Shown here in pieces: positions 1,781 to 28,687 of a stretch of DNA of 39,494 nt (position 1 is its first letter; each line of letters begins with the position of its first letter). Both the position numbers and the translations under genes were made by a program. The stretch is from Microthyrium microscopicum (taxonomy: Eukaryota): positions 2,068,882 through 2,108,375 of the forward strand of contig MU004234.1 in the NCBI GenBank assembly GCA_010405405.1, in the 5' to 3' direction. The notes beneath the pieces were generated by a model. It worked only from the letters and a program-made list of their open reading frames with translations, was not told the DNA's origin and made no database searches.

Positions 1781-3544
1781 CTACTTGTGGCAAGATGTAA
1801 AAATGTATCGCATAATGTGATGAGAGCATTTCATGACAAACGACCCATATAGCCTAGAATGAAGTAGTAGGGGGCTTTTTACCTGTGGTTGAGAAACATA
1901 TTCATCGAGAGGCGACTTCAATAGCAAATAGTCAATCTGTCGACGGGAGCGCTGTTGCGGTTGAGTAGGCGGTCGCCAGTTTGCGATCTCCAATGCAGTC
2001 ATAGCGTCGTACTGTTTGGGTATTAGACACGCCGTGGTACCCAGCTCTGGATTTTCGGCAGCGCTGAGTCGTCTTTGTTCTCCCGCCGCTGTGTCAACGA
2101 TAACGTTGCCAAGGATGTTCCGTATAGTAGGATCTTCATCTGTGTGGGCCGGTATCCAAAGGCAGTAAGTATCAATGCGTCGGAAAAATAAGTTGATGAC
2201 AAGTTGTCTGACTACCTTTGCTATTCCAGCTCTTCTCTTAGTAGTTTTGGCTCCAACGGGATCAACCAGCTGTTTCAGACTTGTCTCTGAGTCTGTCAGA
2301 ATGATGAGCTTGGTGTTTGGCTTACTTTGAACAAGTGACTTGATGTAGTAGCATGCAGTCGCAATTGCAAGCATTTCTGCCTCGTTACTTTCATATCCCC
2401 TTCCTCGCCATGCAATGACATTCCAGTCTGGGTGAGTTGGGTCGCAATAGGCTGTTTCGGAAGTTGCCCATCGATAAGCCACGGCAGCACCAATGGGCTT
2501 GACGACGTGTTGGTTCTGCGCGTTTCCACAGGAGCCATCGGTGTATACTAATAGAGCACTTTCGTTGATATCCTTTGATAGTATATATTCCAGAGTCGAA
2601 GCACCGCACCTGCTCAGTATAGCCGTCGTGGCCGGGAAAGTTTTTGAGGGAGGAGCGATGAAGCTCAAATCGCCACACGAGTTGCAGGTACATTCAGAAA
2701 TTTCTTTCTTGAAAGGGTATTTGTGACTAGGTACGAGACTCTCCATGACACTGCCAAACACGGCTTGGTTACTGTGATTTTGTATGCGGAGAGCGTTATC
2801 TGTCAATACCCGAGTTGGAAGGCTACTATACGCCCACTTGTCGACTGGTTTGGAAATAGTTTGGGTTGTTTTCGGAACTGGTGCCGAAGGAAAGTGAATC
2901 CTGAGCAGCTCATCGGGTATGCTAGGATCAGGAGACGGACAATACCAAGGGGGTGATTCCGATAGCAGTAGGATCGACGGTGGAGGTGGTGTCGATGGAC
3001 AAAGACGCGGAGGACTAACTGGAAGAGGGGAGAGAGGAGTTTCGGAGGGCACAATGGATGATGTATCAGTTTGAGGAGGAGAAGCACTTCCCGGAGGAGC
3101 AGGCGGCGGTGAGTATTCAGGAGGGGGAGGGGCAGGCGATAAAGGAGTTTCGAGAAGAACAACAGATGATGAATTGGCCTTGAGAGAAGGAGGGCTACCC
3201 GGAGGAAGTGGTGGTAGTGAGTATGAAGGATACTGCGATCGAGGAGAATCGAATGGCTGAACAGAGAAGGTAGTGGTCTGGAATGTAGGAAGAACTTCTG
3301 TCGGCGGAGAGTGAGGAGACTCAAGAGCATCACGGGTCTCTTCATCGGCTACAAGAGTGAAGACAGGCGGTGGCAGATTTTCAATAGAATGAGGAGGGGA
3401 GGAAGGCGATGCTAGAGAAGGAACCGATGGTAGAATTTCGACGCCATGCGCAACGACTGGTTGAAGCAACTGGAAATTGTTTGATTCTGATCTTTCTGAT
3501 TGAGTAGACACAGACGATGGCATGAGGCCATCATCAGTGGTCAT
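1781..3544 (-). CDS. Stand-alone RNase HI-family protein with long Pro/Ser-rich disordered N-terminus (copy 1)
   Basis: Open frame with first ATG at 3544 (MTTDDG). RNase HI motifs in order: YTDGS, NEAEMLAI, ILTDS, WIPAH, GNVIVD. No RT and no recognisable hybrid-binding domain. The 3' end could be spliced differently. Confidence 0.8.
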   Translation of the reverse strand: MTTDDGLMPSSVSTQSERSESNNFQLLQPVVAHGVEILPSVPSLASPSSPPHSIENLPPPVFTLVADEETRDALESPHSPPTEVLPTFQTTTFSVQPFDSPRSQYPSYSLPPLPPGSPPSLKANSSSVVLLETPLSPAPPPPEYSPPPAPPGSASPPQTDTSSIVPSETPLSPLPVSPPRLCPSTPPPPSILLLSESPPWYCPSPDPSIPDELLRIHFPSAPVPKTTQTISKPVDKWAYSSLPTRVLTDNALRIQNHSNQAVFGSVMESLVPSHKYPFKKEISECTCNSCGDLSFIAPPSKTFPATTAILSRCGASTLEYILSKDINESALLVYTDGSCGNAQNQHVVKPIGAAVAYRWATSETAYCDPTHPDWNVIAWRGRGYESNEAEMLAIATACYYIKSLVQSKPNTKLIILTDSETSLKQLVDPVGAKTTKRRAGIAKVVRQLVINLFFRRIDTYCLWIPAHTDEDPTIRNILGNVIVDTAAGEQRRLSAAENPELGTTACLIPKQYDAMTALEIANWRPPTQPQQRSRRQIDYLLLKSPLDEYVSQPQVKSPLLLHSRLYGSFVMKCSHHIMRYIFTSCHK

Positions 3545-4670
3545 GGTCACTTGCAGATGGCGGTGACAAGAGAACGTAATGGACAGCAAAAGGACGGTAT
3601 GGTGGGCTTCAGAACAAAATCATGGATTTTTCCGAGCTTGGGGTGGGCATGAAAGCTGTATGGCAGAATTTTGCATCATACCTGCAATTTGTGGGAGTTG
3701 ATTCCATCCTGCTTCAACAGGAAAGAGTAGATCTAAGAATGGCAGGAGCGATACTAGTGCGAAATTACTAATGCCTCGCTTCTTGCCGTCTCGAACGAAC
3801 TGATCTTCAGTGCTACCCAAAGAACTCTCAAATTTGATTGTTTGTGAGTATAATCTTCCGAGTATCTACTCAACCAGAGTCAACTAAGTCTCGGACTCTG
3901 TTGGGCCAGGAATGGCAATTGGATGCCATATACGAGACCTCAGGGAAATATTTTGCGATCTATCAAAGCACAATCGGATAGAACTTCTCCTTGAAAAGTA
4001 CTCAGGGGACGGGGTGCCTCTGCAGATAGAGAAAGTGTATTGACTGAATGGCCAACGATCGAGATCTTACTGTGATGTGACATGGATACTTAAGGTACAC
4101 TGTTGACCGAAACAATCGCCAAAATACAAACCCGTGAGACTTGAAATCCGAACTCATCGCCCAAGCGAGAGCTGACTGGCGGCAGGAAGTTATTTGATAT
4201 CGCATCGATAACAAACCATAGTAGTGCATGGATCGAACAAGGCCGCTTTTAGAAATTCAAAATTGACATCCAGCTGCAATGTTGTTAGCAAGTCCCTGGG
4301 AGAGTACTGCGCGTGCCTATTTGAAGGATATCTGGCATGCTTCATTATGCGGACAAAAGACTGCCTCCCGTCTCACCACCCGCTAAAATGCTAGACACCG
4401 CAGATGTGAGCTTGTGGTTGATATTGCTACAGCGAAGCCCCAACACTACACGATATAGAAGTCCAGAGGCCGTCGCACTTATATTGACCCTGCTGCTGCC
4501 CCTGAACATCTCCCGGCGCATCAGCCGCAACTTTAAATTGAATATTGATTAAGCGTATACGGAGTCAGCACCTATCTCCAACTTCACTTGAATCTCGTCC
4601 GCGCCAATAACACATCTTTACACTCACAGATCAACCACATCTTCAACTAACCCATACTCCGAACCAAAAA

Positions 4671-5135
4671 ATGTTTATCCTCCCCATCACCCTCCTCGCC
4701 CTCAGCGTTGCCGCCACTCCTCTGTCCAACAAGCCCTACTGCCCACCACAGTCAGCAACCCCCGCCGAGCAAACAACCATATTTAACGAATTCATCAACA
4801 CCTTCATAAACAAGGGCGCAGTCATCAAAGCTCTAGAAGTGCACGCCGCAGACACATACATCCAGCACAATCCGTCTGCGCTCTCTGGAAAAGAAGCGAC
4901 AATCAACTTCTTCAAAAGCATGCCCCCTGGCGCAAAAACAACACGTGAAATCATCAATCAAGGCTTTGGTGGGAACAATACGGGCTTTGTGCATTATAAG
5001 ATGCAAAGGGGGGAAGGGAAGTGGACAGCGGTAGTTGATGTTTATAGGATGGAGGGGACTTGTGTTGTGGAGCATTGGGATGTTATGCAGGAGAAGCCGG
5101 CGGGGGCGAAAAATCCTTTGGCTATGTGGTCATAA
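4671..5135 (+). CDS. Secreted SnoaL-like / NTF2-fold protein
   Basis: Signal peptide MFILPITLLALSVAA; YIQHNP and VVEHWDV motifs typical of the SnoaL-like family; single exon. Confidence 0.85.
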   Translation: MFILPITLLALSVAATPLSNKPYCPPQSATPAEQTTIFNEFINTFINKGAVIKALEVHAADTYIQHNPSALSGKEATINFFKSMPPGAKTTREIINQGFGGNNTGFVHYKMQRGEGKWTAVVDVYRMEGTCVVEHWDVMQEKPAGAKNPLAMWS

Positions 5136-5871: not shown

Positions 5872-7316
5872 GTTGATGATTTGTAATAAAAAGTATTGAA
5901 ATAATACTACCGGAATGTTAGCTGTGTATCGTGGACTCGTCACCAGAAGGCTGGACTTACAAAATATAGAATGAAATAGCAGCCGGTGCTAGTAATGAAT
6001 ATTAGAGTAGTGAAAGTGAGTTGAGCTGTTCTCAATTCAATTAGGATTTAGAGCCATTTTATGTTGTTGCAATGATGTGAACCCGATCCTCATGTCAGAC
6101 GAAATGGTATGTTTGAGAAGGTTCTTGGCTCGCAATGCCATTCGCCCCATGTCAAGCGACGGCCGAAAGGTATGGAAACAGAACGAAGAAGGTTCTTTCA
6201 AATGTGCCGTCATCCAGTTTCTTCACTCCAAAGCGTTTCCATTGAAACTTGCTAGTGGGCTTTGGAACGTTCCTTCGGCCGGTGGAGTTCCTGGTCAGTC
6301 AACCTGATGGGCTTAGGGAATTGGCGATCATGATCGAAATTCTCGGCTCAAGATAGTGAACTCGTTGGCTGAAAGGGCTTTCAGAGCCACATGTACAAGT
6401 CGGTAGAGGTGTGGAGGCTCTGAATCCAAATTATATCCCCTGTGACTACATTGCATGATTTGGTGATCTCTAAATGGTGCAATAAGGTAGTGGCGGATGT
6501 TTTTTACGGAAGCACAAGGAAATCTTAAACAATACAACAAACTTCTGACCCCACGGAGCCTTAACACGGCTGTGAAGTAGACTTTGGCGCAAGCGGTAAG
6601 CACAGTTGATACATTGTCGTTCTCACAGTCAGGGTCATGCCAAACCAAGCGCCGAGAAGTTCAAAGTCAAGTAGGGGCTCCTCTGGTCCTTGAAATGACC
6701 ACTTAGTGGACGCATGATTATTTTGCGTCCTGTAACAAGTTGTTTTTGTGAGGATATACTTTGCTGCACGGTAGTCTGTGCTGCTTTCACTTGCATTGGT
6801 CGGCCACAACCTGAAACTAGGGAGAGCAAACCAGGCGCGGTCTCAGCCTTGCAGCCTCTCAGGGCTTTGGCATAACTTGGCCGCCATGGTTTTTCTTGGA
6901 CAACAGAAACTGCAGCGTCTACTACACTTACAGTGCCTACGGCCGTCACTAAGTTCATGCTGATTTTGCATAAACACTGGGTCTTTCTATATCCAGGCAG
7001 TTGTTGCTAGTCGAGCGGCGCATTAGTTGACAATGAATGCAAATATCATGTTGTTATAAAGGACGGCACACAATGATCACTTTCATTTGAGCATGAGGCA
7101 GAGAATCGAAAATAGCTCCACAAAGGTACATTGCGTTATTTTACTGGTTCGCAAAAAAAGCTGGGAGACTGGAAATGATAAAATCTGGCTCGAAGCAGCA
7201 AGGAACTTGAGCTTTTATTGTGCGCAGCCATTGATTCACCTGCCAGCACAAAGCAATTATCGCCGCAAAGATAGTTCTAAGGGTTACATGCATTAGTTTA
7301 CCCAAAAAAAATTATT

Positions 7317-7404
7317 TGACCACCCAGAATTTGACCTCCTGCGCAGGTTGGGGCGTCTTGAGAGGCATACGCCAAATCGGATTGCAGTTGACTTGGCTTG
7401 TTTC
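7317..7404 (-). pseudogene. Degenerate tRNA-like element (copy B)
   Basis: Aligns by eye with 8341-8429 (CCAAGTCAACTGCAATCCGATTTGGCGTA vs CCTAGTCGACAATCCAATGCGTA). Central GGCGT/ACGCC hairpin, ends TGGTCA, followed by T8. Acceptor pairing is lost. Confidence 0.35.
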
Positions 7405-8340
7405 AAGTTCAAATCCATCGTTGTTGTGTGATAAATCAATCCCACCCTCAATTCCCTTACGCTTATAATGGCCAAAAGCATATTGACAAAGAATCAAATA
7501 TTTACAACACCCTTCCAGAAATAATCCTTTGTTCCTCAAATACACTGATTGCTCTGCCAACTTTGGCTGATCTCTCTTGAAAATCTACAATATTATTGGA
7601 TCTGTGCTTACCGTTACATCTTGCTTGCGCATCTTATTGGCTGTCAACGATCTTGGCAGTACCAGAACTCGTCTTTGTGATAAAGACCCGATCGTTCTAT
7701 GGACTAACGATGCGCCAAAGCGTTGTTACTGAGTCGCCGGATGAGCATAGGTTTGCTACTGATAAGATCTTTGGGCTGTCGAGAGCGCCCTTTACTTTCA
7801 CAAGGTCGAAGAGATAGGTAGTCCAGAAATTTATTGGAACTACGGGTTTTAGCGTGTACTGGGGCCCTTGCATTCGTGTCAATGGATGAGCAAGACTATT
7901 CCAGGCCGCGATATTTGACGCAAAGTTAGTGGTTCGTCTATTCGTATTGGTAATAATCTTTCGCGCCTTAAACAAGCCTCAGTGCGCGATGTTAATCACC
8001 AATTTTGATCACTAGGAAAATAACTACAAGTAGATTTCATAGTTATACAGGAAGGCAAAGTTAGAGTTACAACTCTTTGAACCGTGATACGCGTAGTTAC
8101 CTACAGGCTATTTTTGAATATCAAAACTTACAAGCCCTTTCCGGGACATTTATGCTAACAGTTGTAAGAGGACGAGACGAGGGTTTGATATCATGGCAGC
8201 TTGCCTTTTGATGTCGATTTTACATGCTCGAACAGCGCCCACAACCATTGTAACCTGCGGCAAAAAAACCATCCTGACATGGCGAGAGACTACAAAAGTA
8301 ATTGCCATTTTAGTCGACAAAAAAAAAAAAAAATAGATAT

Positions 8341-8429
8341 TGACCATCGGGGTAATTGAACCCCCAAAGATCAGCCGGCGAGGCACCGTAGTGCACTCTA
8401 CGCATTGGATTGTCGACTAGGTGACGGTC
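8341..8429 (-). ncRNA. tRNA-like element or tRNA pseudogene (copy A)
   Basis: 7-bp acceptor-like stem GACCGTC/GATGGTC plus discriminator A, T-arm GGGGG-TTCAATT-ACCCC at canonical spacing, T15 run 7 nt downstream. No canonical D arm or anticodon arm. Confidence 0.5.
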
Positions 8430-8439
8430 TAACTATTTC

Positions 8440-8484
8440 TGGACTGGCGGTAATTTATCACATGCTGTTTTTGGACTGGCGGTA
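8440..8484. repeat. 13-bp direct repeat TGGACTGGCGGTA x2 (32-bp period)
   Basis: Exact copies at 8440-8452 and 8472-8484, immediately upstream of tRNA-like copy A. Confidence 0.85.
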
Positions 8485-9704
8485 TTTTTTATGAGGTACT
8501 TTTGTCGTGCATTTTGCTCACCCTCAATGCTCCGACACTGATAGGTTTGATGGTCAAACAAATATTGACGAACAATTGAATATATAGCAAATGAACCTTC
8601 CATATTTCAGTTTTTTCAAGTCCATCACCGGCATTACATCAAGCTTACACCACACACGACATCGAGTAAACAATCGCTAAAAGTTTTTATTTCCTTGGTT
8701 CCGCTAGAATAAGTCAACTCTCTGTAAATAGCAAAACTTCAAGACAATTTCCGAATGTTCAAAGATCAGACGTAGACTTCGCATACCTAGATACGTATTC
8801 GTCTATCTGCATTATGGGCTACCAGTACACGACAGAAACTAAAAAGTAAAACAAAACAGAAACTCCAACAGACATCTTGGAGAGATCCGGGCTTTGCGGG
8901 AGCGAAGCTGGCATACGCTCTGAGGCGAGCATAGAACACTAAAGAAGAAGGTCTCAAGTCAGCGCGCCATTTGAAACACTACAACTTGACCCTTGGACAG
9001 CCCAAAGTTACCAAAAAACGATCGTTGATATCGTTGCTTACCGCGTAGAAGTCCTGAGCATTCGCCGTAATACAATCGGTTTATCCATCAGGCAAGACAT
9101 TCGATAATGAAATCGAAGCGGACAGCCTTCAAGTACTAAGTATCGATTACGCGGCGAAAAGCCATGACGAGCACCAGTGTTTCATGGTATCACTATCAGC
9201 ATCAGCTTTGGGCTTTGAGGTTTTATTTGTACATAACTATATGATACAACAAGCAGCGGGCAGACTCGAGCTCGACAAAAACAAGTGACTCCTGTTCATA
9301 TTTTTCATGAAGTACGTTCAATCCTTGGATAAACCTCGATCATTCATTATGTCAAGTTGCCGAGTCCCACAAGCAGACAGATTGCCATTCTTGTGTAGCA
9401 TCTAGCAAGGCGGTGCTGGCTGAATATACTATTGCAAGCTAGCCATCGAGTCCAAAATGATCATTATGTTGTGAAAGGCGACCAGTCGAAGCAAAACAAG
9501 AGCTTTATATATTACAGGTAGAGAGAAAGCATCGCTTTTGGTTGAATGTGACTGCATGGGGTGCCCCTTCAAAGCAAGATAAGTATGGCAGTCTTGAGAA
9601 CTGGGACTAAAACTGATTACTGCAATGCCAAAGATAGATAGACCATTATGAAGTAGTTGTTGAAAGACCCTGAGGTCCTTCGGTCGACTATACTATCTGG
9701 TTGA

Positions 9705-11672
9705 TTATCGATAGTTTCGCTGCGCCCATTTGGCTGATTGGAGCCTCATTTTTGTTTTGGACAAAGCTAGAGACGAATTTCCAGCGTAGCGGGGCTTGTG
9801 CTTTGGGAATCTAGCCGGCTTCTTAATTGTAGCTGACGAGCGTGAAGAGGGTTCCTTTGGTGGAGAATCATATCGCTCTCGCTTTCGCTTCTCGTCTGCA
9901 TCTATATACGCCTGCCAAGGTAAGGGGCTGTCCAGTTCCTTCATCTTGGCTTTTGAAATCTCGTCCGCGATAACGCTTCCAATAATGACGAAACGCTTCA
10001 ATTCTTCACATTTCTCTGGATGGCCTGGTATCCAGTGCGCGTTTACTACGACGTTGCGATTGTAAAGCTCGGTCATTAGCTCGGTGATACGCTCTGCATA
10101 AAAATCTCGCTGTCGGCTACGTTTCATTGTTCCCGGATCGGCTCCAAGGAATCTCAAAGCATTATCGGAATCAGTGAACAGGACAACCACACCGCCTGGT
10201 TTGACGTTTTTGGAAACCATTTGGAGAGCCCGAAAAATTGCAAAGACCTCTGCATCGTTGATGTCATAACCAGGAAAGTTTTCGGCCTGACGTTGCCAGC
10301 TGGTATGTGTTTTGTCGCGATGGGCTTTAGGATCCTCTGCCACACGATACGCAACTCCAACTCCCAGTGCTTTTAAGCTCCTACTAAACATCATGCGGGT
10401 TACATGGCTCGCCGACCCATCCGGATATAACAAGTGCAGTGCTGTATCTTTCAGGCGTGACAAACTTCTCTCGCAAGCAATGGCATCTTCTGGCTCCAAA
10501 ATGGTAATCGTCCTAGGGAAACGCTTATTGGGGCGGGAAAAGAAACGAGCATTGCTGGCATGCGGCGGCGAATGACCTTCAGCGAGCGCCCAAGGTATGG
10601 TGTCAGTATAGCTATCCAGATGGGCATCGGCAGATACCGATCGCGAGCCTCGCTTGCAAGCTCCTCTGCTAAGTGGCGCCGGCAAAGTCTGAAAGTCAGG
10701 AAATGGTAGTGACGAAGATAGCGCCTGGGTGGGCGCGGGTGGATCTTGGTGGTTCGTCGCTTGCGCTTGCTGCAGAGTAATAACGTCCTCCCCATTTGTG
10801 GTAGGCATGGGCTTGACGGCTTCATCGCTTGCAAGTAACGTAGTATGCAGTTCAGAAGACCCTGACTGGAAGGAAGAGACATCGCTATCAACCTCGGCAA
10901 GCCCAGTAGTGTCGCCTTCCAGAGGAAGGACGGGGAATAGATCTGATGGTGAAGCTCGATTAAGCTCTTTAGGGAAATCAGTGCCATGAGAAATTGCAGT
11001 AATCTTTCTTGATACTGCGGCTTCTGGACGAATTGTTTGCACTGTACCTTCCTCGAGGCTGAAAGTGCCAGTGTCAGCGATCGATTCAGGGGGGTGCGGG
11101 GCCTCATTGATGGTTGACAGCTGTGAGCCATCGCGACTTGAGCGGAGAGTGTCGTCTGAGTTAGCTCCATCAATGTCAATATCCACGGATGGCATAATCT
11201 TGCCACTGATGCTTGGCAGCTCTAGGTCATTGGAAGTTGGACGCAAAGAACGGTGTTTGTCGATTCCGGAATCGGGAATTGCGTTGTCTGCATCAAGCAG
11301 GTTGGGAATCTGTTTTCAAAGTTAGATATCGCGCAGCGAGTCGTCGTCTCAACGTACGTTCGCGCAGGTTGTATCAAGCGGATACGGCAGAAGTATTGAG
11401 TCAATTTGGCTTATAGCCAGCAATAGAGATGCCTCGTCGCTGCTCACATTTGCGGCCGATGAATGATTTGGAGACGGTTGTGGCAACGAGTCTGCATTGG
11501 AAGAATCCAGTAGTTGAAATACGTTGTGGTTATCTGCTTTCTTGGGACGGGTCATTTCAGCGTGAACAAGTGGCTGAACCGCGTCTCGTGAGGCAATCTT
11601 TCGAGGCGAGTCGATGTCATTGCTGAGTGTAGTAGAGACCGCCACTGGCACGAGGACAGCGGCGGTGGCCAT
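9705..11672 (-). CDS. Stand-alone RNase HI-family protein with long disordered N-terminus and basic tail (copy 2), ~639 aa
   Basis: Exon 11672-11358, intron 11357-11310 (GTACGT...CTAAC...CAG), exon 11309-9705 joins two listed ORFs in frame. Motifs YPDGS, NDAEVFAI, LFTDS, WIPGH, GSVIAD. Confidence 0.8.
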
Positions 11673-12328
11673 GGCTGAATCCGCGATCAGAATATCAAAA
11701 CGTCAAGGTCCGAAGGAGGGAAGAAAAACTTCCGAATGAGCCTGAATAGCGGACTTGATGGAGACTGTATGTCGCAGTATGGAGCAGCCGGGACAAGTTA
11801 TGAAATGGTGTGGAGCAAAGAGCAAAATATGGTGGGCAGAAATGAAAGGGCCAGGAAGCACCGAGATAAACCATCCAGCGACCATCATACCTTCCGTGAA
11901 AGGAAAGTGTGCTAGCTGAAAGTCCTAACCCGGTTTGGTAATAAAGTCGGGGATGATCGAGGTGTTCCTGCCAACTTGGGAAGCGTAGAGCCACTGCAGC
12001 GCATGAGGTGTTCCTGCTTTCTCTAGAATTGGTTGCAGCTCCTCAACTACCAGATTGCCTAGCTCTTCATCTCCATATTTATTCTGCGATACTATAGAAA
12101 TGCAACAGAGTTGATAACATAGCGCTTTTCGGTCTGTGATTCTGCGTTAGCTGTTGGTGAACATTCCAAGCCCAACTTTTGCCAGCTCTTCACCAGCAAC
12201 ATTGTCCATTGTTCACGGGCATGGAACTTGCCGCCACGGCCTAGAGAGCGCCATGAATATCAAAACGTCCATGTCTACTGGCGAAAACTCGCATCAACCT
12301 GAACAGGTAGCTCTAACATTGGTATATA

Positions 12329-14272
12329 TTACAAGCTTTGCATCCCTCTAGTCTCTATAGGGAGTAGACACATCGCAACAAACGATACAAGATACAGACC
12401 TCCAGCCGCCAGAATTGGAGCCGAAGGATTGATTTTACCCGTCTGCGCCGCAATCATAGGAGCCGATAATCCAGCAAGACGGTTTAAAAGACTGGCGATT
12501 CCAGAGCCAGTTCCTCGAACGGGTGCGGGAAATACTTCTGGGGTATATGCGTAAATGACTCCGTACATAACATTCTATAGCACTATCAGTAACAGCAGCG
12601 AAGACAAAAAGATAGGGACTTACAGAAAAGAGACTCTGTATGCACGCTGCAAATGTCTGCCACGGTGGGTAGCCGGAAAGTGTGAAGAGAAAAAGACTGA
12701 ATCCAGTGACTAGGGTCGATATGGCCATGGTTCCTTTCCTGCCGAAGCGTGGTTGGTCTACTGTATATGCGGCAATGAAACTGCCGGGTACTCCAGCGAC
12801 GGCGGTGATGAGGAAGTTGGTATAGACAACGTCAGTTGGGTTGAGGTCGCCTGCTTTACCATTGTGTTCCAGATATTGCGGCAAGAAGGCGTTGAATAGA
12901 GGATAGGCCCATCCAACACTTTACATGCTGTTAGTAGATTACGGAGAACGGATTGAGGATTTCATACGTGAGCCAGATAACCCAGATCAAGGCAGTCGTA
13001 ATGCCAAGCTTCCAGCCATCAAACAGAGCCCCAACTTTGTCGACGGAGAACTTTCCAGTCTTTTTCGACATGTTGAGGCCAGGAAGAGCGCTATCTTCTC
13101 CTGCGAGTTGATGTAGAGTTTTCTCATCCAGCCAGGTTTTGCCTCCGTTGTATCTAGCGATACGTTGAACCACTTCTATGGCCTCTGATTGTCTGTTTCT
13201 GGACAGCAGATATTTCGGCGACTCGAGAAGATTGAAGAGAAAGAACCGGCAAACAAACATGAATAGAGTGAATAGTCCAAGAACAGCAATGAAGTAGCGC
13301 CAGCCACGGTTGTCTTTCGACTCGCAGCAGGGTTGTTGGCCACCAGTCGCAAAGCATGGAGAAAGGTTTGCGGCACATGAATATCGAGGTATGAAATACC
13401 AGGCAACTGTATGATAGATTAGTGGTGCTTGGGAGAGATGCGCGAGATATGTCTTACTTATCGCCGCCGTGAGCTGACCAAAAGGCCACCAAGCGCTCAG
13501 TAGCGTAAGTAGCTTGTTGTCCGCCATGGGAAGAAACTCCAAAAATAATGCGCCATCCACAGGAAGATTCCCGCCTACTCCAAAGCCCATGAGCGCAAAG
13601 AGAAGAGCAGTAGTAGCCCATGTTGGCCCAAACGATATCAAGACACCAAAAAAGCCAGTGATGAACAAAGTCGTGTTGAACGTAATGCGGCGGCCAAGAG
13701 TATCACTTAGAAATCCCCACGCAACACTGCCGAAGCCCATGCCGACATATAGAATCATAGTCGTGTACCGGACTGAAGTCTCTGACAAACCAAATTCAGT
13801 TTGTAGAGATGGTAAGCTTAATGAAAGTCCCTGAAAAAATGTTAGGCTAACAAGTGCATGTATATGAAAGACTTATATACCACTAGCCAGAGACTGATGA
13901 CATTGTTAGCACATATTCGCAGGCCGAGGACGAGTGAGACTGACTTATCTGCAAACCAGCCAAAACCACACAGAATGAAAAGTTCCCATTGGTACTTGCC
14001 CATCCCAATATCTTGGATAGCTCGGTTGATGATTTTACTCTGTCCTATTTGAAAACCCCTTAGTCCAGCCTAGTAGCCAGCCAGAGTAACATACGTTCGT
14101 ACAAGTCCGCGCCCATAAGATCATGCTCCAATTCATTTCGAAGTTGCTCCACCAACACATCCGAATCCGGTAACAGCGGCGCATCGTCCTCTTCAAAGTT
14201 GGCATCTCCGTAATCATCTCGGTCGCCATTCAGCGGCTGCCGAGCCTCCTCATCTTCCTGAGAAGCCCGCAT
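12329..14272 (-). CDS. MFS transporter (SV2/sugar-porter-like), multi-exon
   Basis: IGMGKYQWELFILCGFGW, SDTLGRR, GGNLPVD, ESPKYL, FGRKG, YTPEVFPAPVRGTG and PIETRG motifs across exons with GT-AG introns. Confidence 0.9.
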
Positions 14273-18128: not shown

Positions 18129-18214
18129 GACCAGCTCGGGAATTGAACTGTCGAAAACTTTCATCAGTGGCTGTCGCCAGGTCCACCTCGTTATTCTTGC
18201 AATCAGGGAGGGTC
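18129..18214 (-). pseudogene. Degenerate tRNA-like element (copy C)
   Basis: Starts GACCCTC, ends GCTGGTC (5 of 7 pairs). B-box-like GTTCAATTC at canonical distance from the 3' end, central GTGG/CCAC hairpin, TTTT directly after. Confidence 0.35.
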
Positions 18215-18345
18215 ACAATTGAATCCGGTTACCCAAGTTGAAATCTAAATTCCAAACAAGGCTAGCCGACCTCGTACCGTGAGACAGACCTTGGTCTTCA
18301 TGTCGAGCCTCTCACACCGAATTATTATGCAAATGATCAACTCTT

Positions 18346-19333
18346 GTACATATAGAACTAATGGAAATCGAATATTAATATTGCTAACACAGAACTATGT
18401 CAAGCTTTTTACACCCAAGTTGCAATGCATTATATCGAGAATATCCCCACCAGAAATGCTGGAAGTTATAGAACGATTTGCATGTCCCGATATATGTCGG
18501 GGTGCCCAACCGCCATATCACTCTAGATTGTTTATGCTACCGATCCAGTGTCTATCATAATCTAGACCCACCTTCAACGGACCACACCTTTACTGATCTC
18601 ACCAGCTGATTGAAACTTGATAGATACGGCGATTCATTCGTTCTAAAAAGTCAAAAGATTAATCTGAGCAGAAGACATCTAACAAGTCCCTTGAACCACC
18701 TAATCTGTCCAGAGACCTATATATGTAGAGATTCCGAATCCCACGAGCCATCGTGTTTCTACTGTCTTAGTCAGGTGGGCGGGGAAATTGGACTCTTTAG
18801 GAGTTTGGGAGGCGCACTTATGCAATTGCTCAACGTATCGCGAACACGCGAACACAGGATCGATGGGAATCAATTGTAGATTTGGACAAAGCAGGCCATT
18901 TTCTCCGTTTTGATACATGTGCGCGACAGTTTCTCTTTCTATTTCGTCTGAGCGGAGTCGTGCCTATTCTAGACATCTCAACACCTTCATCAAAAGCACA
19001 AAGTTCACAGGCCCATTACACCAAACATGTCTGATATTCTAATATCGAGATCAGGAAATCACAAGCTAACTAGCATTTCTTTACATGTTCTCAGTTTGTC
19101 AAGGAACTTTCAGCCAAGGGCATTGGTGTAAACATCAGTGAATCAAAGGACACGAAAGCTGCGAAGGGAATGCACTGGCCGATCACTGCGCTGTATATAG
19201 TCGTGAGCAGATGGTAAGATCTTCTCCATTATATGTTCTCCTAAAGCTATCTTTCCCATTGGAGCGAATGCCATGCGGAGGGGTCTCAAGGCGCAAAACG
19301 AAACTTTGCAAGACACATGCTTACTCACTGTAG
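18346..19333 (+). pseudogene. RNase HI-family pseudogene (copy 4), paralogue of copy 3
   Basis: 19095-19136 reads FVKELSAKGIGVNI; after a 1-nt frameshift 19136-19213 reads Q*IKGHESCEGNALADHCAVYSREQM, matching copy 3 LIQEISDRGIAVQLNWVKGHNSCHTNNLVDQHAVNHRENL. Upstream remnants LGVWE (~18797; copy 3 LGVWD) and HYIENIPTR (~18428; copy 3 RYMETTLPR). Intron-like 18346-18392. Boundaries approximate. Confidence 0.7.
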
Positions 19334-21458
19334 GAGAAAACTTATAGAGCGTCGAGAAACAACGCCGGAGACTTTCCAGCAAGCCCCATGGTTTACACAT
19401 TACCACCTATATTCTCGAAAAGTACCAACTTCCGGACTTTTCCTCGAATACCTACAAGAAGCCAAGCGTCTTCTGACGAGTTTGCAACCCCTTAATGTCG
19501 CAGGCAGCTGTAAGTTACTCGAACATGCTTGTAGACACCGAAGCTGCCCTCCTGGAGCTGCCGGCTTCTCGCCCACCAGCTGCCGGCCATTATTGCAGGT
19601 CGCGCACGACGTGGAGACGCATCGACTTGTGCGCGCGAAAAGCGGTCCTGCCCAAGCAGGCAACAGCTACTCGCCCACAACATTCGACCAACCATAATAA
19701 GGGACCGCATGGTCACACCGAGCGGCGAGCCCATAAGCAAAAATCGAAAACGCGTTCACTGTACTCGAATGCGAGCAAGAGCGACCACCAGCGCAAATGA
19801 GATCGGACTCTAGGACCTTCGACGAGACAAGAATTTTAGCGACCAAGTGAATCCCCGCGCACAAAAGAAGCTACGAAAACTAGAGTCTAAGCTAAACTCG
19901 GAAGCATAATGGGGTAGGAAAATGCACTATTTGCATAATAAGGTTGTGAGAACTGCTGGCATAAGAGAGAGAGCAAATGAGCTAAAGTACTGCAGTTGCC
20001 CTAGCAAACGACAATCAGTACACTTAACACCGCAGTCCTAGATGCAGCTATAAATCTGGATTGGGGGAGATCAGATAGCCAATATTCCTTGAATACTATC
20101 AGCATTTCTTCGAAGTGATCAACGATGGTATGTGGACTAGAGCTGCGTGTCAATATCCCGATTCCTGTTTACAAGCTGATACGTAGGGCTACATTATCAG
20201 CTGGTCCATTTGGAAATGAATGGCGCCACCTGCTAAAAATAATCGTCAGTCAGTCAGCACTATGCAGCTAATGTGTTGTTCGATCAACCCGCATTCCAGT
20301 CACAGGAATTCAGTGCGACACAAGGACGCTTTGGATAATATCAACCAGCGATTTCGTTCTCCCTCAGCCTCCCGCTAGCTTGGCAATGCCCTCTTTGTCG
20401 AAAATGCCAAACAACGTTGATGGGCTAGTAATGAAAGTTTGGGACGTTTCCATGTCTACAGTCAGAGAACTTCGATTGTTTCGCTACCAATAAGGCTGTC
20501 GATGACACTATAGAACATCAATCTAGTAAGAACATGCCTTTCAATGGCAAGGATTGCATGGGCCGGTGTAAGTTCAAGATCTTCCAAGGAGAGGCTGCGC
20601 TCTTCCAACGATGAGATGCGCCTGAGCAAATATTACAACAACCCATATGCTATTGCCTAACTGAGAAGCTCACCTTCCAATGGTTATAGTGTTTGGTTTC
20701 CTTCAGAGCTGTCGAACAGCTACCGTAGCGTGGAGGGGGGAGTAAAGGACTTGATATTTTGATGAAACTACATGATCTTTTGAAGTCTTTTTAGAAGTCT
20801 ATTCTTTTCTAGAAGATGATGTCTTGAGTAGACCTTATGTTCTATGAATAAAAGTAATTACGACTAAAGATAAAGAAGGCACGATAGGATGTTGGTAAGA
20901 ATAAAAGGATAAAGTATAGGAGCTAAATAGATCGGGGGCTATATACATAAGCTTGGTAAGTTATACTTTATTATTGTGAAACCCTTAGTAAAATGTAGTC
21001 GTGATTCTGCCTCGCCTGACTAAGCTATAGCGTATTGATCTAGCCCGATTTGTAGTTCGAATTGTAATTTATAAAAAAAAAAGTACTTATTACTAGTTGT
21101 CTTGCTCTTTTAATCCTTTAATGAATTTAGTGGTGATTTTTTTGCCCCTCTTTATAGCTATGACATGGCTAAAAAATAGCTAAAACATAGTTTTTTTAGA
21201 AAATGCTTTTTTGAACAGAAAATATAGGTTTTCTAAAACAGGTATCTTCTCTTAGAAAGCGGCATCGATTGTACCTCTCTGTAGAATATACATTTTCTTG
21301 TCTAGAAGCTTCATAGGATGATCACTGGTAAATTTCCTCTACCCCCCCTCGCGCGCTACGGTACCTAGCAAGGAACACCAAGCAGGTAATGGTAGTGGGC
21401 AGAAACTCAGTATTGTTCAGTGCTAGTAGCAAGCGAACGCGAAGTTGTGATCACGAAA

Positions 21459-23422
21459 TCAGGATTTAGTTTTATTGTTTATGTCTCGGCTTTCTTTCTG
21501 TTCGGGAGTAGCTGATTGCTTTTGGTAGCAAAACAAGCTGACGACAAAGGCTGCAACAGCAAAGCCCATCAGAGTCCGATTCTGCAATACAAACCCCCTG
21601 TCATATGCTCTCTTGACAGACAGAGTCTGCGTAGGAGAAAACTTGTCAAGTCTTGTCGGAATATTGAGTAGCTTGGTCAAGTCATCGGCAGGCAGCGACC
21701 CAGCCAAATCATTTTGGACAGCCCTATTCAACAGAGCCTGGCAAAGAGCGCTTCCAAGAACACCGCCAAACACACGAACTTGAGTAACTGCACCAACGGC
21801 GATAGCTATGTTCAATTAGTTTCGATCATTCATAATGGTTGATACGGTCTGAACTGACCACGATCCTCTGCTGAAACTGCAAATCTGGCAACGACCAGAA
21901 CGCTAGAGAGGGAGAGTCCAAAACCAATGCCTAATATTGATTGAAATCCATACTGGCGGGTGGTCTCTGACCCTAAAGACTTCAAGGACGACATGAGGCC
22001 AAGCCCAAGGACTTGGGTGCCTGTTCCTGCCAAGAGAACATAAGAGGCAATGCTGGTGTGATTGCAAAGATAGCCACCGATCGCAGATCCAAATGCTGAA
22101 GATACCAGTAACGGCAGCATCCTGATACCTGCAGCCACAGGCGATAGACTCTGCGCCAACTGGTAGCGCTGTGGAAGAAAAATGATAGTTGCAACAAATG
22201 GAAATCCGGTCAAGAAGGCGGTTCTGTTACAATGATTAGCACCTTTTTCACCAGAGAGTATTAGACTTACATGATGGCTGCTGAGACCACTCGTCTAGTC
22301 AACAGAGTTGCAGGAAAGATAGGAAGAATTGCCTTGAATTTGTGTCCAAAGGTCAACAAGTACTCCCATCCAGCGAACGCTATCATTAGCATCGCCGAGA
22401 GCACGCCGAAGATGATCATGACATGGCTTTTCCAGCCGGATCTAAGACTACCTTGCTCAAGCGCTAGGATGAGGAGAGTAGACCCTGTCAAGGAAAGAAG
22501 ACATCCAGCAATGTCTACGCGTACCAGGCCTCGGAACCCTATAGGTGGAATATTCGAGTTTGCGGGAAAGAAGCGGAAGACACAAATGATGATGACAACT
22601 CCAAATGGGATGCTAAAGTCGACATAGTCAGCACTGTCAATTACGCGGCACTGGAAGCAACTCACTTCAAGTTGAAGATCCATCTCCAGGTAGATTTAGA
22701 AGTAATGATACCGCCCAGGATTGGGCCGCAGATACTTGACAGGGCAAATATAAAGCCTTGTAGTCCTGATACCAGTCCTTGCCTTCCTTCTGGCGCAATC
22801 TCAATCATTACTGTCATCGCTAGAATGTAGACACCTGCTCCACCAATTCCTTGAATAGCGCGGAATGATATTCTTGAAGGGTTAGCATATTTTGCTGCTC
22901 TGAAACAACACAGTAAAGAAATCTTACAATTGGTTCATTGATTGGGCAAGGCCACACCCCAAAGAAGACAGGGTGAAAATGAATACGGCAGTGACAAATG
23001 CTGACTTTTGTCCAAAGATGTCGCCGCATCTTGCAAAGATGATCAGAAAGCCTGTATGAGGTCAAAAACTACTGCGCATATGATCAGGGCCGTATCGTAC
23101 CAGTATATGTTAGCATGTACGAAACAACAATCCAATTCGATCTTTCAAAGTCGCCTAGATTGGAAGAAATATCGATCAAGGCTGTAGCGATGATGGTGGT
23201 TTCCATTACTGAGAGAAATAGTCCTAAGGACAACCTATTTAGCTGTCAGCGTATGAGTCTGCCGGAAACTATCTCAAGGTGTTAATACATCGTGACGGTG
23301 ATCCAAAGACGCCAGCCATGAATTGGTGGTACTTGAGCCACTTGGGCTGATTCAGAGCAGCCATGGCTTGATGATGAGGCCGATAGACTCTTCTCAACAT
23401 CATTTGCTTGCTGCTCGGTCAT
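21459..23422 (-). CDS. MFS drug:H+ antiporter (DHA2-like), multi-exon
   Basis: ATG 23422 (MTEQQ). LFLSVMETTIIATAL, WIVVSYMLTYT, GPILGG...WRWIF, LPQRYQ...SPVAAGIRMLP, QVRVFGG. Confidence 0.88.
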
Positions 23423-24537
23423 TGAGCTGATATTTTGGAGCCCCTGGCAGTAGCAATGCTTTCTGCGGTGCGAGCTCTACTAAACCGACTGATATCAGTA
23501 TGGGCATTTGGATGCTAGTAGTGTTTTGGCTAGTATGGCAAGATAGTGTGGACACTTGACAGGCCTATTTGAGGGAAAAGTAGTAAGTATGCCGCCAGCT
23601 ACAAGCACTTCAGCCGGGTGGCCAAAAAAGGTCAGGCACTGATCTATCCAAATTGACAGAGTCTGGTCCTTACAGCTAATCTACAAATTTGCATGATATA
23701 TCTGCAGTGAATGTGTTTCTCCAATCAGCAGTTATACAATCGGTCAAGGGGTACTTTGCTGCCAGACGTATATGACTTGGCAAGGAAGGCTTATCTGGAT
23801 AAGGTTGATAATAGGCTCATTTAGGGTTTGAGGGCAAAAAGCTTCACAGCGGACCTCAGTTGTCAAAGCTCAAGATAGGCTCAAGCTAAGGCCTTGATGA
23901 ACAATTGTATTACACGTCATCCGACCTGGTAAGCTGTCAAAACAATGGACGCGTCTTGGCAGCTTCAAACAAGATCAGATACAGCCGCAGGAGTTGACGT
24001 TGATTGATTCTTTGCTGTATCACTACCGTGGTAATGCAAAGGAGAAATCTCTGCACAAGTTTCAGACAGAGCGCACAGAGCAGATCCCACGAGATGATGT
24101 GTTTCATACAAACAAGAAAAACAAAACCTGAAGCGAAGGTCGCTTGTGGCGATGAAGTCCCTTCACGGCTGCCTGTGAGCTAAAAGTAATCTCATATGTA
24201 TGCGGCAGGTAACATATTCGATCTCAATTGACCGGAATACTCTGAAAACGATATGCCAGGAGAAATACCGACTCATAGCTCTGGGACACAGATAGGCAGA
24301 AAAACGCATGAAATTGCTCGCGGCGCTTTATGCTACAGATATCTATAGTCAGCTGCTCTTATGACAAAGCTGGAGAACGATTCTAGGCGAACAAGTATGG
24401 CGTGTGAGTTAAAAAACTCACGGATACCGTGCTGTTTTCTGTCACACAACTCTTTGTTCTTGAAAACCTTTCTATTACCTTATATCCATCTAGAAACTCG
24501 ACACCTTACTTTAAGATCCACGTGAATAGCCTCGAAG

Positions 24538-25546
24538 TCAGAAGCTGTTCTCTTCCATCCACTTCTTCGACTCTTCAGCGTATTCTTTCCTCCAGCGGGT
24601 CAAAGGTTGTCGCTCATACACAGCATCTCCAGCGGTCCACATCATGCGCTTTTTGTCGAGCTCTGGAGTAACATCATTATCTGGACAAATGATGTAAAAT
24701 TTTCCGTCGTTCATCTTTTGAAAGCAGTAATCCGCAACCTGTTCAGGGGACCAGGCTCCATCTGGCTTTTTCTCTTCTGAGCCAGGCACATTTCCTGACT
24801 AGAGGACATTTAAATTCTGTTACACGCGCGGAACGTGGTACTTACGAGACCTGTAAAAGTCCATCCGGGGACTAAAAGGTGGACGCCAATGTCGGTGTCC
24901 TTCAAGTCATAACTAAGATGCTCTGCTAAAGACTTGACGGCCGCTTTGGAAGCATTGTAGGCTGGATTACCAGGAGGATTTGTAATACCCTTCCAAAATG
25001 AGAAGAGAACTTCGTTTCGTGAATAGGATCATACCTGTTTACTTCCAGTAATCACAATTGATGAGCGATATCCGGACTGAGCCTTCAAGAAAGGTACGAA
25101 AGTATTCAGACCATTCACCACGCCGAAGAGATTCGTGTTCAGAATCTGTCCTCACGTTTAGCTCGAGTGAACTGAATAAAGGTGTAGTGAGAAATCACTC
25201 GTTGGAAATATTCTCTATCACCCCAATCGCCCTTGCCGCCAATCCCAGCATTTAGGAACAGGAAGCCGAGTTGACCCCATGCTCTCTCAACATCGCCCTT
25301 CAGCTTTTCCCAATCTTCCGTATTGGTAACGTCTACATCGAATGTAAGGACATCCTCGGGCGCACCACTCGCCAAATCATCTTTTGCTCTAGCGAGAAGC
25401 TTGGTGTTGCGGTCGACGATGCCAACACGCATGCCCTTGGCTCTACACTTATGCGCGATGGCGAGACCAATTCCTGAGGCCCCACCAGTGATGAGGGCCG
25501 TGGCCGGCAAGGTTGACTGCGAGGATATCTTTGGAATCGGTGGCAT
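24538..25546 (-). CDS. Short-chain dehydrogenase/reductase, multi-exon
   Basis: TGGASGIG cofactor motif, LNAG, catalytic YNASK (~24945-24960), HLLVPGWTFT. Confidence 0.9.
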
Positions 25547-27023
25547 TTTGTACTCTTAACTTTTGCAAGATATGCATGTGGCCTTGAAAGAACTAAGAGG
25601 AAATGACGTTGATATAGAACAGATCGTGGTCGGGTCGTGGCGAAGGTCCAAGCTCAATCTCCACATGGGTTAGTCAACTATCCCTGTTCTTGGCAAGGCT
25701 GAAACCACAAGGCTGCAAGTATAGAGTTAAATCTATGTTGTTCAGAGGAACTGTGTTTGACGAATAAAAGCCTTTCGAAAGCCTTGTCATGTGTTTAGAC
25801 AAAGGTTATATTATCAAAAAGCAAGCTTTATCTGTCAGTGTTCTAGCAAATTAGACAAGCAAAAACTACGGAAATGACCGGTATATAAGTATATTGGATT
25901 GTAGCAGAGTTTCCCACATAATCTTTGCAGTTATCTCTTTCGTTATTTCAAATACATTTTCACCTTCTCTCTATATGTAGATACAAATGCTACACATCAA
26001 AGGCGAGCTAGTAGTCGATCATTGGGAGCACTTAGTTATGTCCTGTGCTGCTAGACGATTATTCTCTTTATGTCTACTTCTCCATATCAACCAGATTTTC
26101 TCCATCATCACCACTGCAGAATTGGTGCTTCACGAAAATCCCTGGTTATAGTCATCTGATCATGCATCAGGATAGTCCAAGCTCAACTCAGCATCGTGTT
26201 TGGCCAAATTCATGTCCTCTCGACAAGGCTGAACATGGAAGGCTGAGAACGCTTAACTTTGGGCGTTCAAAGTAACAAAAATATATAAAATAGCGTAGGT
26301 TGACTTTTACTCTCTGGAGCGCATTTCAATGATGCATTTTGTTCTGATTTAGATCGCTGCTTTCTTGGAGACACGCCTGCTTCAATGTTGTAAGCTGAAG
26401 GCAAGCGCAGTCCAAGTTCGAGGTAGAAATTCCGTCGTACCTGCCCCATCCTCACCTACCTCATCACCATCAAATCAGAGCCGGGCTGAACTACACCTCA
26501 CAAAAATTTGGAGTCCTTGAACCCCATAGCTTTTAAAAATGTATCGGTGCTGGTCTCCCTCTCTCTCTTTCTGCACCTCTCCCTGCTCACTGCAACATCA
26601 CAGCAACGACGCTGTCAGAGTACGATCATCCTGGACCTTGCGGTCATTAGGAGAGCACTTCTCATTGAAGTAAACCTGCAGAACAGCGGCCTCCATCACA
26701 GCCGGTGTCAACTCCAGTTCAAAGGCCACGCATTCCTAAGTGACCAAAATGGGCTGCAGCTTGAGTGATCGTCACCAGCCATTGTCAAGCATAGATCCAG
26801 CACTCTCGTCGGTCAGTGGCGCTCGTGGTAATCGGACCTCTGCTTTGAGCTAATTTGGAAAGTACATACAGCCATCACTTACCCGACCAAGTTCGACGGA
26901 CGGACAGATTCCAAATGTAGCCCCGTACGAAATGCCTTTGAGTATGTTGATCCGCTCCATAGTCTTTCCCTGTTTTTTACTTCCCTTCTGCTTGGTGACC
27001 AGACTTTCAGCACGACCTACCGC

Positions 27024-28687
27024 ATGAAACATCTGGTCCTAGCAGCTCGTGCTCTATTCTCGTGTTGCACTTTATGCGCACCTGCAGTTGGAAGACTTCC
27101 AATCTATCGCTACATGACTGATGAAGAAAGACAATGGCGAAAGTTCCAGTTGCTGAACTAGGGTGGAAGCTTTAACTAATATCTTCATAGTCAAAGACGG
27201 GAAATGTAATGTTGATCGGAAAAGAGTTCAAGATGAGTGTGCGCGATATATGGAAACTACCCTCCCGCGCGAGGGTAGACCCTTCTTTGCAGCTTCCAGA
27301 TGCTCATGTGGCATCCAGCTCCCATGTGTGCTTTGCAACGACGTTGAATTGTTCGCACCTCCCACTGCGTTCTGTGCCGCATCCGTGCTTATCCAACGCG
27401 AATTCCTCTCTCTTGAATATGAGTACTGGATCACCCAGGCCGCAGGTGAAGATGATTTGATCATTCATACAGATGGATCGGGAAAGAATTGGCACTGGGG
27501 CGCTGCTGCTTTCTACCGGCGGGGTGGTTCTTTCTCGAAATGGCAGAAGTGGGCTGACAGTGGCCTGGGGGTTTGGGATAAGTTTTGCCCTGAAAGTGAG
27601 CCACTTGCTCTTGAAGGTGGTTTGAAGATGGCACTAAAGGATGAATTTGGTAAGACTATTCTGTTGGTTGGATGACATTGCTAACAAGTCCTTAGCTGGA
27701 ATTCGCCGCGTGATTATATTCACCGATTCACAGACATCTCTCGATTCCGTTGCTATCCCAGCATATTGCGCATCGAATCCGACATTCCATCGCGTTGTCG
27801 ATCGATGTAGGGGCCTTATACAAGAAATCTCCGACAGGGGCATTGCTGTACAGCTCAACTGGGTCAAGGGACACAATAGTTGCCATACCAATAATCTTGT
27901 GGATCAGCATGCAGTCAACCACCGTGAAAATTTGGAAGAATCAACCGCCAACAACCCAACGCTACAAGCGGATTGGCGATGGAAAAAAGAAAGCGCACAA
28001 ACCTTTCAAATCCAAATAGATGCTCTGAAACGACTCGAGGCTTCTGACGAGCCTAGAACCAAGTACGGCCCGCAAAAGCTGGCTAAACTTGAGGAGCGAC
28101 TGCAAGAAATCATCAAGAGAAACAAAAGATCGGAGGCAGCCAAACGTCAAAAGCGGGCGTCTAGGCTTCGGGAAGACCCTATCAACCTGTTCGCGTTGGT
28201 AAGAAATATGACTGCAGAGAAGTTCCACCATGACAAGGTCGCTCCAGTCCATCTCTTTGTGTCTGTACAAGACATGAACGCAAAGAATGCTCACCAAACG
28301 CGATGCCGGCTGTTTGTCAAACGCCGTGAGCTATTGGCCATCTTGAAGATCATTGATGGTGCATTACGCAATCCGCCGGTTTCTTATTCATTCCGAGACG
28401 AATCGAATTGGGGTGCAATGGATCTGGCCAACTTGTATCGTGCTGAGTTGAGTCTGTTCGAATTGGATGATATGGACTTGGAGGGCTTGGACTTGAATCA
28501 GGTAAATCTGGATCTTGTCGACTGGGATCTTGTGGACTTGGATCTTGTTAACCTGGTTGCTTTCAATGTTGGCAGCTTGAATCGTTCGGAGTTGGAGCGA
28601 GAGAGATGTGTATTGCTAGGTGTTCTGGGCATCTTTGATGAAGAGCTGTCACGGATAGCTCAAAGACACAATTGGGCCAAGGGATAA
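27024..28687 (+). CDS. Stand-alone RNase HI-family protein with Cys cluster and long helical C-terminal extension (copy 3); 5' end unresolved
   Basis: Intron 27650-27695 (GTAAGA...GCTAAC...TAG) fuses ORFs 27163-27675 and 27641-28687 in frame (…KDEF/AGIRRVIIFTDS). Motifs HTDGS, PESEPLAL, IFTDS, WVKGH, NNLVD. Acceptor at 27190; the start at 27024 is tentative. Confidence 0.75.

Follow-up and report, generated by a model that had tools for sequence, protein, structure and literature searches.

The fungus Microthyrium microscopicum carries a dispersed set of genes for type-1 ribonuclease H (RNase H) within a stretch of 39,494 nt (the window), which exact protein matches place in the 2,777,148-bp contig MU004234.1. 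The set includes: (i) three intact genes, c1, c2 and c4, which keep the catalytic residues D-E-D-H-D, (ii) a relic, c3, at 19.1 kb, and (iii) two further paralogues, P0004 (397 aa, KAF2670471) and P0097 (323 aa, KAF2670467), which belong to the same contig and are not encoded in the window. A preliminary description of this DNA had proposed three intact RNase H genes and one pseudogene, and this count stands for the window; the array as a whole is larger than could be seen there. The family is of the type found in long interspersed nuclear elements (LINEs) by sequence similarity, its genes in the window are without a reverse transcriptase (RT), and it is probably a host-retained family that was amplified locally and is subject to birth and death.

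The c1 gene (1781..3544, minus strand; P0001, BT63DRAFT_470144, KAF2670474, 616 aa) lies in a stop-free open reading frame (ORF) of 612 codons (1781-3619, minus strand) with its stop codon at 1781-1783. It encodes a long proline-rich N-terminal region, then a pre-domain and then the RNase H domain (2075..2557, minus strand; PF00075, 28.9 bits; motifs YTDGS, NEAE, LTDSE, IPAHT and NVIVD). An exact match to P0001 sets the exon core at 3544-1883. The NCBI model leaves the open frame at about 1883 and adds small exons at 1691-1560, ~1418-1398 and ~1172-1155, in a flank altered by repeat-induced point mutation (RIP). The annotated 3' end of c1 is doubtful, since the extra exons sit in this AT-rich flank and the plain frame stops at 1781-1783. 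The c2 gene (9705..11672, minus strand; P0003, BT63DRAFT_454667, KAF2670477, 639 aa) has exons at 11672-11358 and 11309-9708, an intron at 11310-11357 and a main frame of 536 codons (9705-11315); its pre-domain and RNase H domain together span 9933..10553 (minus strand; motifs YPDGS, NDAE, FTDSD, IPGHP and SVIAD; Pfam 23.6-24.0 bits). The c4 gene (26749..28687, plus strand; P0002, BT63DRAFT_454673, KAF2670484, 530 aa) has exon cores, again by exact match, at 26749-26811, 26863-26940, 27193-27648 and 27695-28684. Its two frames in 27157-28687 (plus strand) are joined by a short intron, placed at ~27649-27694 by the NCBI model only, which interrupts the RNase H domain (27457..27921, plus strand; motifs HTDGS, PESE, FTDSQ, VKGHN and NNLVD; Pfam 24.2 bits). 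In the C-terminal ~240 aa of c4, long helices give way to an acidic D/L-rich repeat.

Assignment of these proteins to type-1 RNase H is based on profile, motif and fold. RNase_H (PF00075) is the sole Pfam family detected in c1, c2 and c4; its gathering score of 25.8 bits is passed by c1 alone, with c2 and c4 just under. When aligned, the three share the pattern (Y/H)(T/P)DGS, (A/S)E, TDS, (P/K)(A/G)H and (V/A)D. None of the catalytic positions D, E, D, H and D varies among the five Microthyrium paralogues (alignment A2) or among 38 aligned family members, c4 included (alignment A5). For c1 (window 1940-2812), the AlphaFold2 model has a mean predicted local distance difference test score (pLDDT) of 83.6 and a predicted template modelling (TM) score of 0.83. 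It matches 356 PDB chains at E <= 1e-3 in Foldseek, with probability 1.0 to the human RNase H1 catalytic domain, E. coli RNase HI and the RNase H of xenotropic murine leukemia virus-related virus and murine leukemia virus (XMRV/MLV). Thus, c1 is confidently predicted to fold as RNase H. Ahead of the first RNase H strand, the c1 model includes two strands and a helix (residues 49-80) of high confidence. On inspection, the AlphaFold2 model of c4 has a core pLDDT of ~90 with the same beta-beta-alpha extension and order of strands and helices as c1, and then continues into long helices and disorder. The N-terminal parts of the copies are proline/serine-rich or short, and clusters of basic residues follow the RNase H domain in c1, c2, c4 and P0004 (sequences read by eye), which suggests a nuclear or nucleic-acid-binding role.

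Expression was assessed with contigs from one public run (X1), the RNA nature of which is shown by spliced contigs, compared with positions 9000-28999. A spliced RNA contig of 4929 nt spans c2 from 9213 and skips 11310-11357, which has GT..AG ends on the minus strand. Thus, c2 is transcribed and spliced. The intron of c2 is borne out by RNA; that of c4 is a feature of the NCBI model. The same contig (9213-14448, minus strand) runs unbroken from the upstream gene for a major facilitator superfamily (MFS)/sugar transporter, across a spacer of ~650 nt, into c2, and it includes transporter introns at 12575-12623, 12919-12967, 13407-13457 and others. Read-through transcription, overlapping untranslated regions or an assembly join could each explain this continuity. 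No RNA contig of run X1 covers c3 (18338-19671) or c4 (25675-28342), a result that is uninformative on their expression.

The fourth locus, c3 (19095..19213, plus strand), is a relic of the C-terminal ~40-50 codons of a c4-like RNase H domain in which the KGH...AD motif is kept. It is composed of two pieces in different frames: 19095-19138 reads FVKELSAKGIGVNIS and 19142-19213 reads IKGHESCEGNALADHCAVYSREQM. A TGA replaces the W of the paralogues, the frame changes before this TGA, and the only catalytic residues retained are the H and the last D. Over 28 aa the relic shares 46% identity with c4 (tblastx, E 4e-4), and over 60 nt 72%; phmmer gives E 3.5e-4 among 58 local pieces with c4 as the best likeness, and the family hidden Markov model (HMM) run over the whole window gives 7.5 bits (E 0.25). 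The first ~170 codons of the domain are unrecognisable, as nothing significant is detected beyond the last ~50 codons by family HMM, phmmer, tblastn or blastn; weak collinear traces are noted nearby at 18737-18757 and 19467-19544. The locus is dead, which fits birth and death of the family. Downstream of c3, at 19672-21082 (plus strand), are low-depth RNA contigs with a GT..AG intron (19941-19993) and a loose A-run at 21082; these suggest a plus-strand transcript that ends at ~21082, and no Pfam family is found in the frames of this segment. Further on, at 21234-21319, an RNA contig of depth 138 has six mismatches to the window within 86 bases close to its end and may derive from a paralogous or allelic sequence.

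The four cores in the window are spaced by 7.9, 8.9 and 8.6 kb, in line with the 8-9 kb period of the preliminary description. Such evenness occurs in 0.3-0.5% of random placements, a post hoc figure based on three gaps. The interleaved genes are unrelated metabolic genes (transporters, oxidoreductases, a phosphatase and others by Pfam), again as had been described. Accession numbers follow the order of genes in the window, with two genes between c1 and c2 and six transcribed or annotated units between c2 and c4. The RNase H genes are ordered P0097 (KAF2670467), P0004 (KAF2670471), c1 (KAF2670474), c2 (KAF2670477) and c4 (KAF2670484), with steps of 4, 3, 3 and then 7 across the c3 relic. Since the numbering follows gene order inside the window, P0004 and P0097 are placed just past the left AT-rich block. 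By accession order, rather than by DNA, the array would thus comprise at least six loci, with one RNase H locus per 3-4 gene models.

Evidence of a mobile element was sought throughout the window. When 19 long relatives (18 with the RT family RVT_1) are used as tblastn queries, all matches at E < 0.2 are confined to the RNase H parts of c1, c2 and c4. Among 59 ORFs/proteins scanned with Pfam, there is no RT or endonuclease (RVT, Exo_endo_phos), integrase or gag, no transposable element family besides RNase_H, and no recombinase or transposase. Comparison of the window with itself detects paralogy of c1 with c2 and of c3 with c4 alone; no duplication is detectable among the three MFS genes or the enzymes. 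No repeat family is tied to the copies, no direct or inverted repeats bound units in the window, and no A-tract or other repeat lies downstream of c2 or c4. The open frame upstream of the RNase H domain extends for 354 codons in c1 and ~300 in c2 (~400 in the spliced model) with no RT-like sequence, and in the LINE Pol proteins found here the RT ends ~210-220 aa ahead of the RNase H domain. Thus, the earlier statement that no RT, integrase, gag or endonuclease stands beside the copies holds for the window, while the suggestion that the genes mark a mobile unit finds no support, given the absence of shared repeats, of paralogy among interleaved genes and of a recombinase.

An exhaustive profile search of 1.84 billion representative proteins returns 3177 matches at E <= 1e-3, and the domain content of relatives was judged on the best 150 of these, 147 of which are from outside the window. 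Only the three window proteins score below 1e-30, followed by P0004 (3e-25). The best match outside Microthyrium is a butterfly protein, P0005, with RNase_H and zf-RVT but no RVT_1 (9e-22). Other leading outside matches include a Pol of Ustilago trichophora (P0006, SPO32027.1) with apurinic/apyrimidinic endonuclease (APE), RT and RNase H domains (72 bits, E 4.5e-15), a beetle protein with RT and RNase H (E ~5e-15) and RT-less proteins of Knufia and Viridothelium. RVT_1 is present in 19 of the 147 outside matches (9 of 57 at E 1e-3 and 10 of 90 at E 1e-5), seven of which also have Exo_endo_phos_2, and RVT_3 or zf-RVT co-occurs in many relatives. The remaining 128 are RT-less; many of these may be fragments, since they come from short contigs. 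A hybrid-binding domain is detected by Pfam in none of the 147. The non-LTR (long terminal repeat) likeness noted in the preliminary description is thereby upheld, with LINE Pols among the best outside matches and no RNase H1 bearing a hybrid-binding domain in the best 150. Solved cellular and retroviral RNase H proteins score 22-27 bits against the profile, compared to 72 bits for the LINE Pol. Narrower searches added little: word-index protein searches with c1 and c4 gave only their own records, one with the alignment of the five paralogues gave just two of these five, its candidates being swamped by low-complexity words, metagenome locus scans with the c1+P0004 alignment and with P0055 gave no confirmed locus, and a protein atlas search gave generic RNase H clusters and nothing more specific.

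The RNase H of LINE Pol (APE-RT-RNase H, as in SPO32027.1) shares the layout of catalytic motifs with the Microthyrium family; the CDD label for the LINE-type domain is Rnase_HI_RT_non_LTR. In 8 of the 19 RT-bearing matches the alignment to the family extends ~20-40 residues upstream of the Pfam domain, beginning at or before profile position 38 and, thus, inside the pre-domain, whereas the alignments of P0046 and P0115 begin at 55-61. Unlike LINE Pol, the Microthyrium genes have no RT or endonuclease in the ORF or the window and no repeated copies or LINE 3' ends in the window; they have introns and long unrelated tails, and instead of being near-identical the copies share 16-38% identity. 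Cellular RNase H1 (fungal Rnh1 and human RNASEH1; 2qk9 and 8swc) has the same fold as c1 (Foldseek probability 1.0, TM score 0.64-0.68 on the target), and its D-E-D-D + His active site is common to the family. By contrast, the Microthyrium copies have no Pfam-detected hybrid-binding domain, match RNase H1 weakly in sequence (22.6 bits), have a beta-beta-alpha extension before the domain and are clustered paralogues rather than one conserved gene. Consistent with this, no pattern of a single conserved orthologue is observed, as the best outside protein stands at 9e-22 and at least five paralogues are on one contig. Retroviral and LTR-element RNase H (HIV-1 and XMRV/MLV) matches in fold and catalytic residues, and the RNase H domain of HIV-1 is the best PDB match by sequence (26.7 bits, C-terminal half only); however, the copies are without RT, integrase and LTRs and are much nearer in sequence to LINE-type proteins. 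RT-less ascomycete proteins, with examples in Knufia fluminis (KAK5953234.1), Viridothelium virens (KAF2230411.1) and Knufia obscura (KAK5940807.1), are stand-alone, of similar size and of the same broad family (E ~1e-14 to 1e-12 for these proteins), and have RNase_H as the sole Pfam domain. These are distant relatives of the Microthyrium copies, not orthologues.

The five paralogues are 16-38% identical overall. In pairwise comparisons identity is 38% for c1 and P0004, 32% for c1 and c2, 29% for c2 and P0004, and 23-25% for c4 and the others; in the full-length alignment A2, identity to P0004 is 30% for c1, 24% for c2, 16% for c4 and 19% for P0097. A tree was built from 125 of the 150 domains, with 25 rows of incomplete domains left out. 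The Shimodaira-Hasegawa-like approximate likelihood ratio test (SH-aLRT) gives 93 for c1 with P0004 and 85 when c2 is added, and P0097 adjoins them with one other protein. The deep branches lack support (of the 122 inner branches, 58 are open), and the direction of descent between LINEs and the family is not settled by the tree. When the five paralogues are constrained to one clade, the log-likelihood is 51.6 above that of the quick free search with an approximately unbiased test value (p-AU) of 0.85. A single local origin is thus not rejected and is the simpler reading of the sequences. Descent of the family from a LINE is likely, as judged from sequence similarity.

The RNase H loci reside in a gene island with a GC content of about 0.41-0.55, sandwiched by two AT-rich blocks (GC 0.15-0.18). 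The left block (1..1500) is heavily RIPed, with a GC of 0.15, a TpA/ApT of 1.51 and a (CpA+TpG)/(ApC+GpT) of 0.05; the right block (38200..39494), likewise heavily RIPed, has a GC of 0.18 and a RIP composite index of +1.46. Across both flanks, TpA/ApT is ~1.5 and the substrate index 0.05-0.08, with the composite index at +1.46. The switch from the RIPed ends to normal composition is sharp, and the source sequence of these ends is unrecognisable. By contrast, the composite index is -0.49 to -1.06 at all four RNase H loci, comparable to neighbouring genes, which agrees with the earlier observation that the copies escape the heavy RIP of the flanks. The interleaved genes include, by Pfam: a SnoaL-like protein and an HsbA gene between c1 and c2; an MFS/sugar transporter and a histidine acid phosphatase (His_Phos_2) between c2 and c3; an MFS transporter and a short-chain dehydrogenase (SDR) between c3 and c4; and an MFS transporter, a glucose-methanol-choline (GMC) oxidoreductase and a pyrroloquinoline quinone (PQQ)-type propeller beyond c4. 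The 3.7 kb between HsbA and c2 (6000-9700) are of ordinary composition with no Pfam-matching frame and, by accession order, no annotated gene; the part from 9000 onward was compared with RNA contigs. The propeller is encoded by a 658-codon frame (35823-37799, minus strand) with PQQ/PQQ_2 beta-propeller matches and a Ser/Thr-rich tail. In a preprint, a PQQ eight-bladed propeller protein of M. microscopicum is named as the top canonical candidate for a eukaryotic lanthanide-dependent dehydrogenase (bioRxiv 10.64898/2026.07.14.738520); it may or may not be the product of this gene.

The explanation that is favoured, with somewhat better than even confidence, is that of a LINE-type, RT-less RNase H family retained by the host, amplified locally and shaped by birth and death. 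The copies would be real host genes, each with a folded type-1 RNase H domain and an intact D-E-D-D + His active site. A beta-beta-alpha extension specific to the family would lie ahead of the domain, with tails on either side that are variable and for the most part disordered. Local duplication of a gene of putative LINE ancestry would have given rise to five or more intact genes and one relic, arrayed every 3-4 gene models on one chromosome, after which the copies would have diverged to 16-38% identity with the catalytic core kept. The enzymes are predicted from their family to catalyze the Mg-dependent cleavage of the RNA strand in RNA:DNA hybrids, probably in the nucleus in light of the basic clusters. 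Their role may be to remove hybrids such as retroelement intermediates or R-loops, with primers as another candidate target. The preliminary description had likewise proposed an old, RT-less, diversifying family under birth and death. This proposal fits residues that are invariant at 16-38% identity, long frames, introns, the splicing of c2, one decayed copy, two additional paralogues and a single clade that is not rejected.

Several observations weigh against this explanation. The Pfam scores of c2 and c4 are slightly below the curated cut-off, and P0004 and P0097 have no Pfam match at E 1e-3 / 1e-5. Since the RNA contig of c2 extends without a break into the upstream MFS gene, it may reflect read-through transcription. 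In a search of the 150 matches with an HMM of the pre-domain only, outside relatives are at the level of noise (best E 0.02, LINE Pols 0.23 and 3.1, reversed control 0.62). In the tree, c4 falls apart from its paralogues on a long branch, in a clade with the RT-bearing P0112 (SH-aLRT 92), and the Microthyrium clade is not inside an RT-bearing clade, its neighbours in the free search being RT-less and some of them bacterial or cellular-looking (P0046 and P0115).

The last two observations bear on an unlikely alternative, in which the family descends from a stand-alone RNase HI of cellular or bacterial type and its likeness to LINEs reflects common ancestry in the other direction. The RT-less nearest neighbours of c1, c2, P0004 and P0097 in the free tree, which include P0046 (PF00075, 4e-40) and P0115 (ExoX-like_C and RNase_H), are in keeping with such an origin, as is a pre-domain that is not significantly common to LINE Pols. 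However, the deep branches of the tree are unsupported, the profile scores peak in LINE Pols and RT-less eukaryotic proteins, many relatives carry RVT_3 or zf-RVT, and it is the alignments of RT-bearing proteins (8 of 19), not those of P0046 and P0115, that begin inside the pre-domain. A different origin, which is improbable, would make the copies decaying LINE insertions that were truncated at the 5' end, with the RNase H 3' end left, the gene models supplied by automatic annotation and no function in the host. LINE Pols among the best outside matches, the abundance of RT-less matches that may be fragments, the dead fragment c3 and the 3' exons of the c1 model in RIPed DNA are all expected of such debris. 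A truncated LINE would nonetheless be expected to reveal RT sequence in the stop-free codons upstream of the domain in c1 (354) and c2 (~300), given the distance of ~210-220 aa in LINE Pols, and none is found; nor is there a RIP signature in the copies or a poly(A) tract or other repeat after c2 or c4, and the c2 intron is spliced. Thus, neutral transposon debris is unlikely, as all five catalytic residues and the fold are conserved at 16-38% identity in long open frames with introns, free of RIP, and at least one mRNA is spliced.

The regular spacing invites the proposal that each RNase H gene marks a unit of 8-9 kb, which would be a segmental duplication or a mobile cassette of a kind not yet recognised. 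This proposal would account for the even gaps (7.9, 8.9 and 8.6 kb; post hoc P ~0.003-0.005), for accession steps of 4, 3, 3 and then 7 across the relic, and for the MFS transporter that follows c2, c3 and c4. It is very improbable, however, as the paralogy in the window is restricted to c1-c2 and c3-c4 and does not extend to the MFS genes or enzymes, gene orientations differ among the units, and neither unit-bounding repeats nor a recombinase, transposase or RT among the 59 ORFs/proteins is observed. The host-retained family leaves the regular interleaving with unrelated genes unexplained. A bolder extension of it, which is speculative and rather unlikely, is that the array is a fast-diversifying immune-like locus. 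In this view, RNase H enzymes that the host took from LINEs would degrade invasive hybrids, among them the RNA:DNA intermediates of different retroelements. The variable tails would then serve in targeting, and local duplication and loss would provide turnover, as in defence gene clusters. If true, this would explain deep divergence with an untouched active site, as well as the location in a gene island with RIPed repeats on both sides.

The proteins have existing database entries, either as hypothetical proteins or as 'RNase H type-1 domain-containing' proteins, and RT-less relatives are frequent in databases. A literature search returned no account of RT-less LINE-type RNase H genes that are clustered or domesticated in fungi, nor of the Knufia and Viridothelium proteins, and a term search of the main text of the genome paper (PMC7082219) gives 0 occurrences of 'RNase H'.

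Fungal protein sets often include RT-less RNase H ORFs of retroelement type, which are commonly written off as transposon debris. The M. microscopicum array suggests that a host can keep such modules as genes of its own and amplify them, since at least five neighbours, with a divergence close to the detection limit, keep every catalytic residue, the fold and open frames, and at least one is transcribed and spliced. If activity and role were shown, the family would represent a fungal case of repeated domestication of a LINE enzyme module and a new player in retroelement control or R-loop metabolism.

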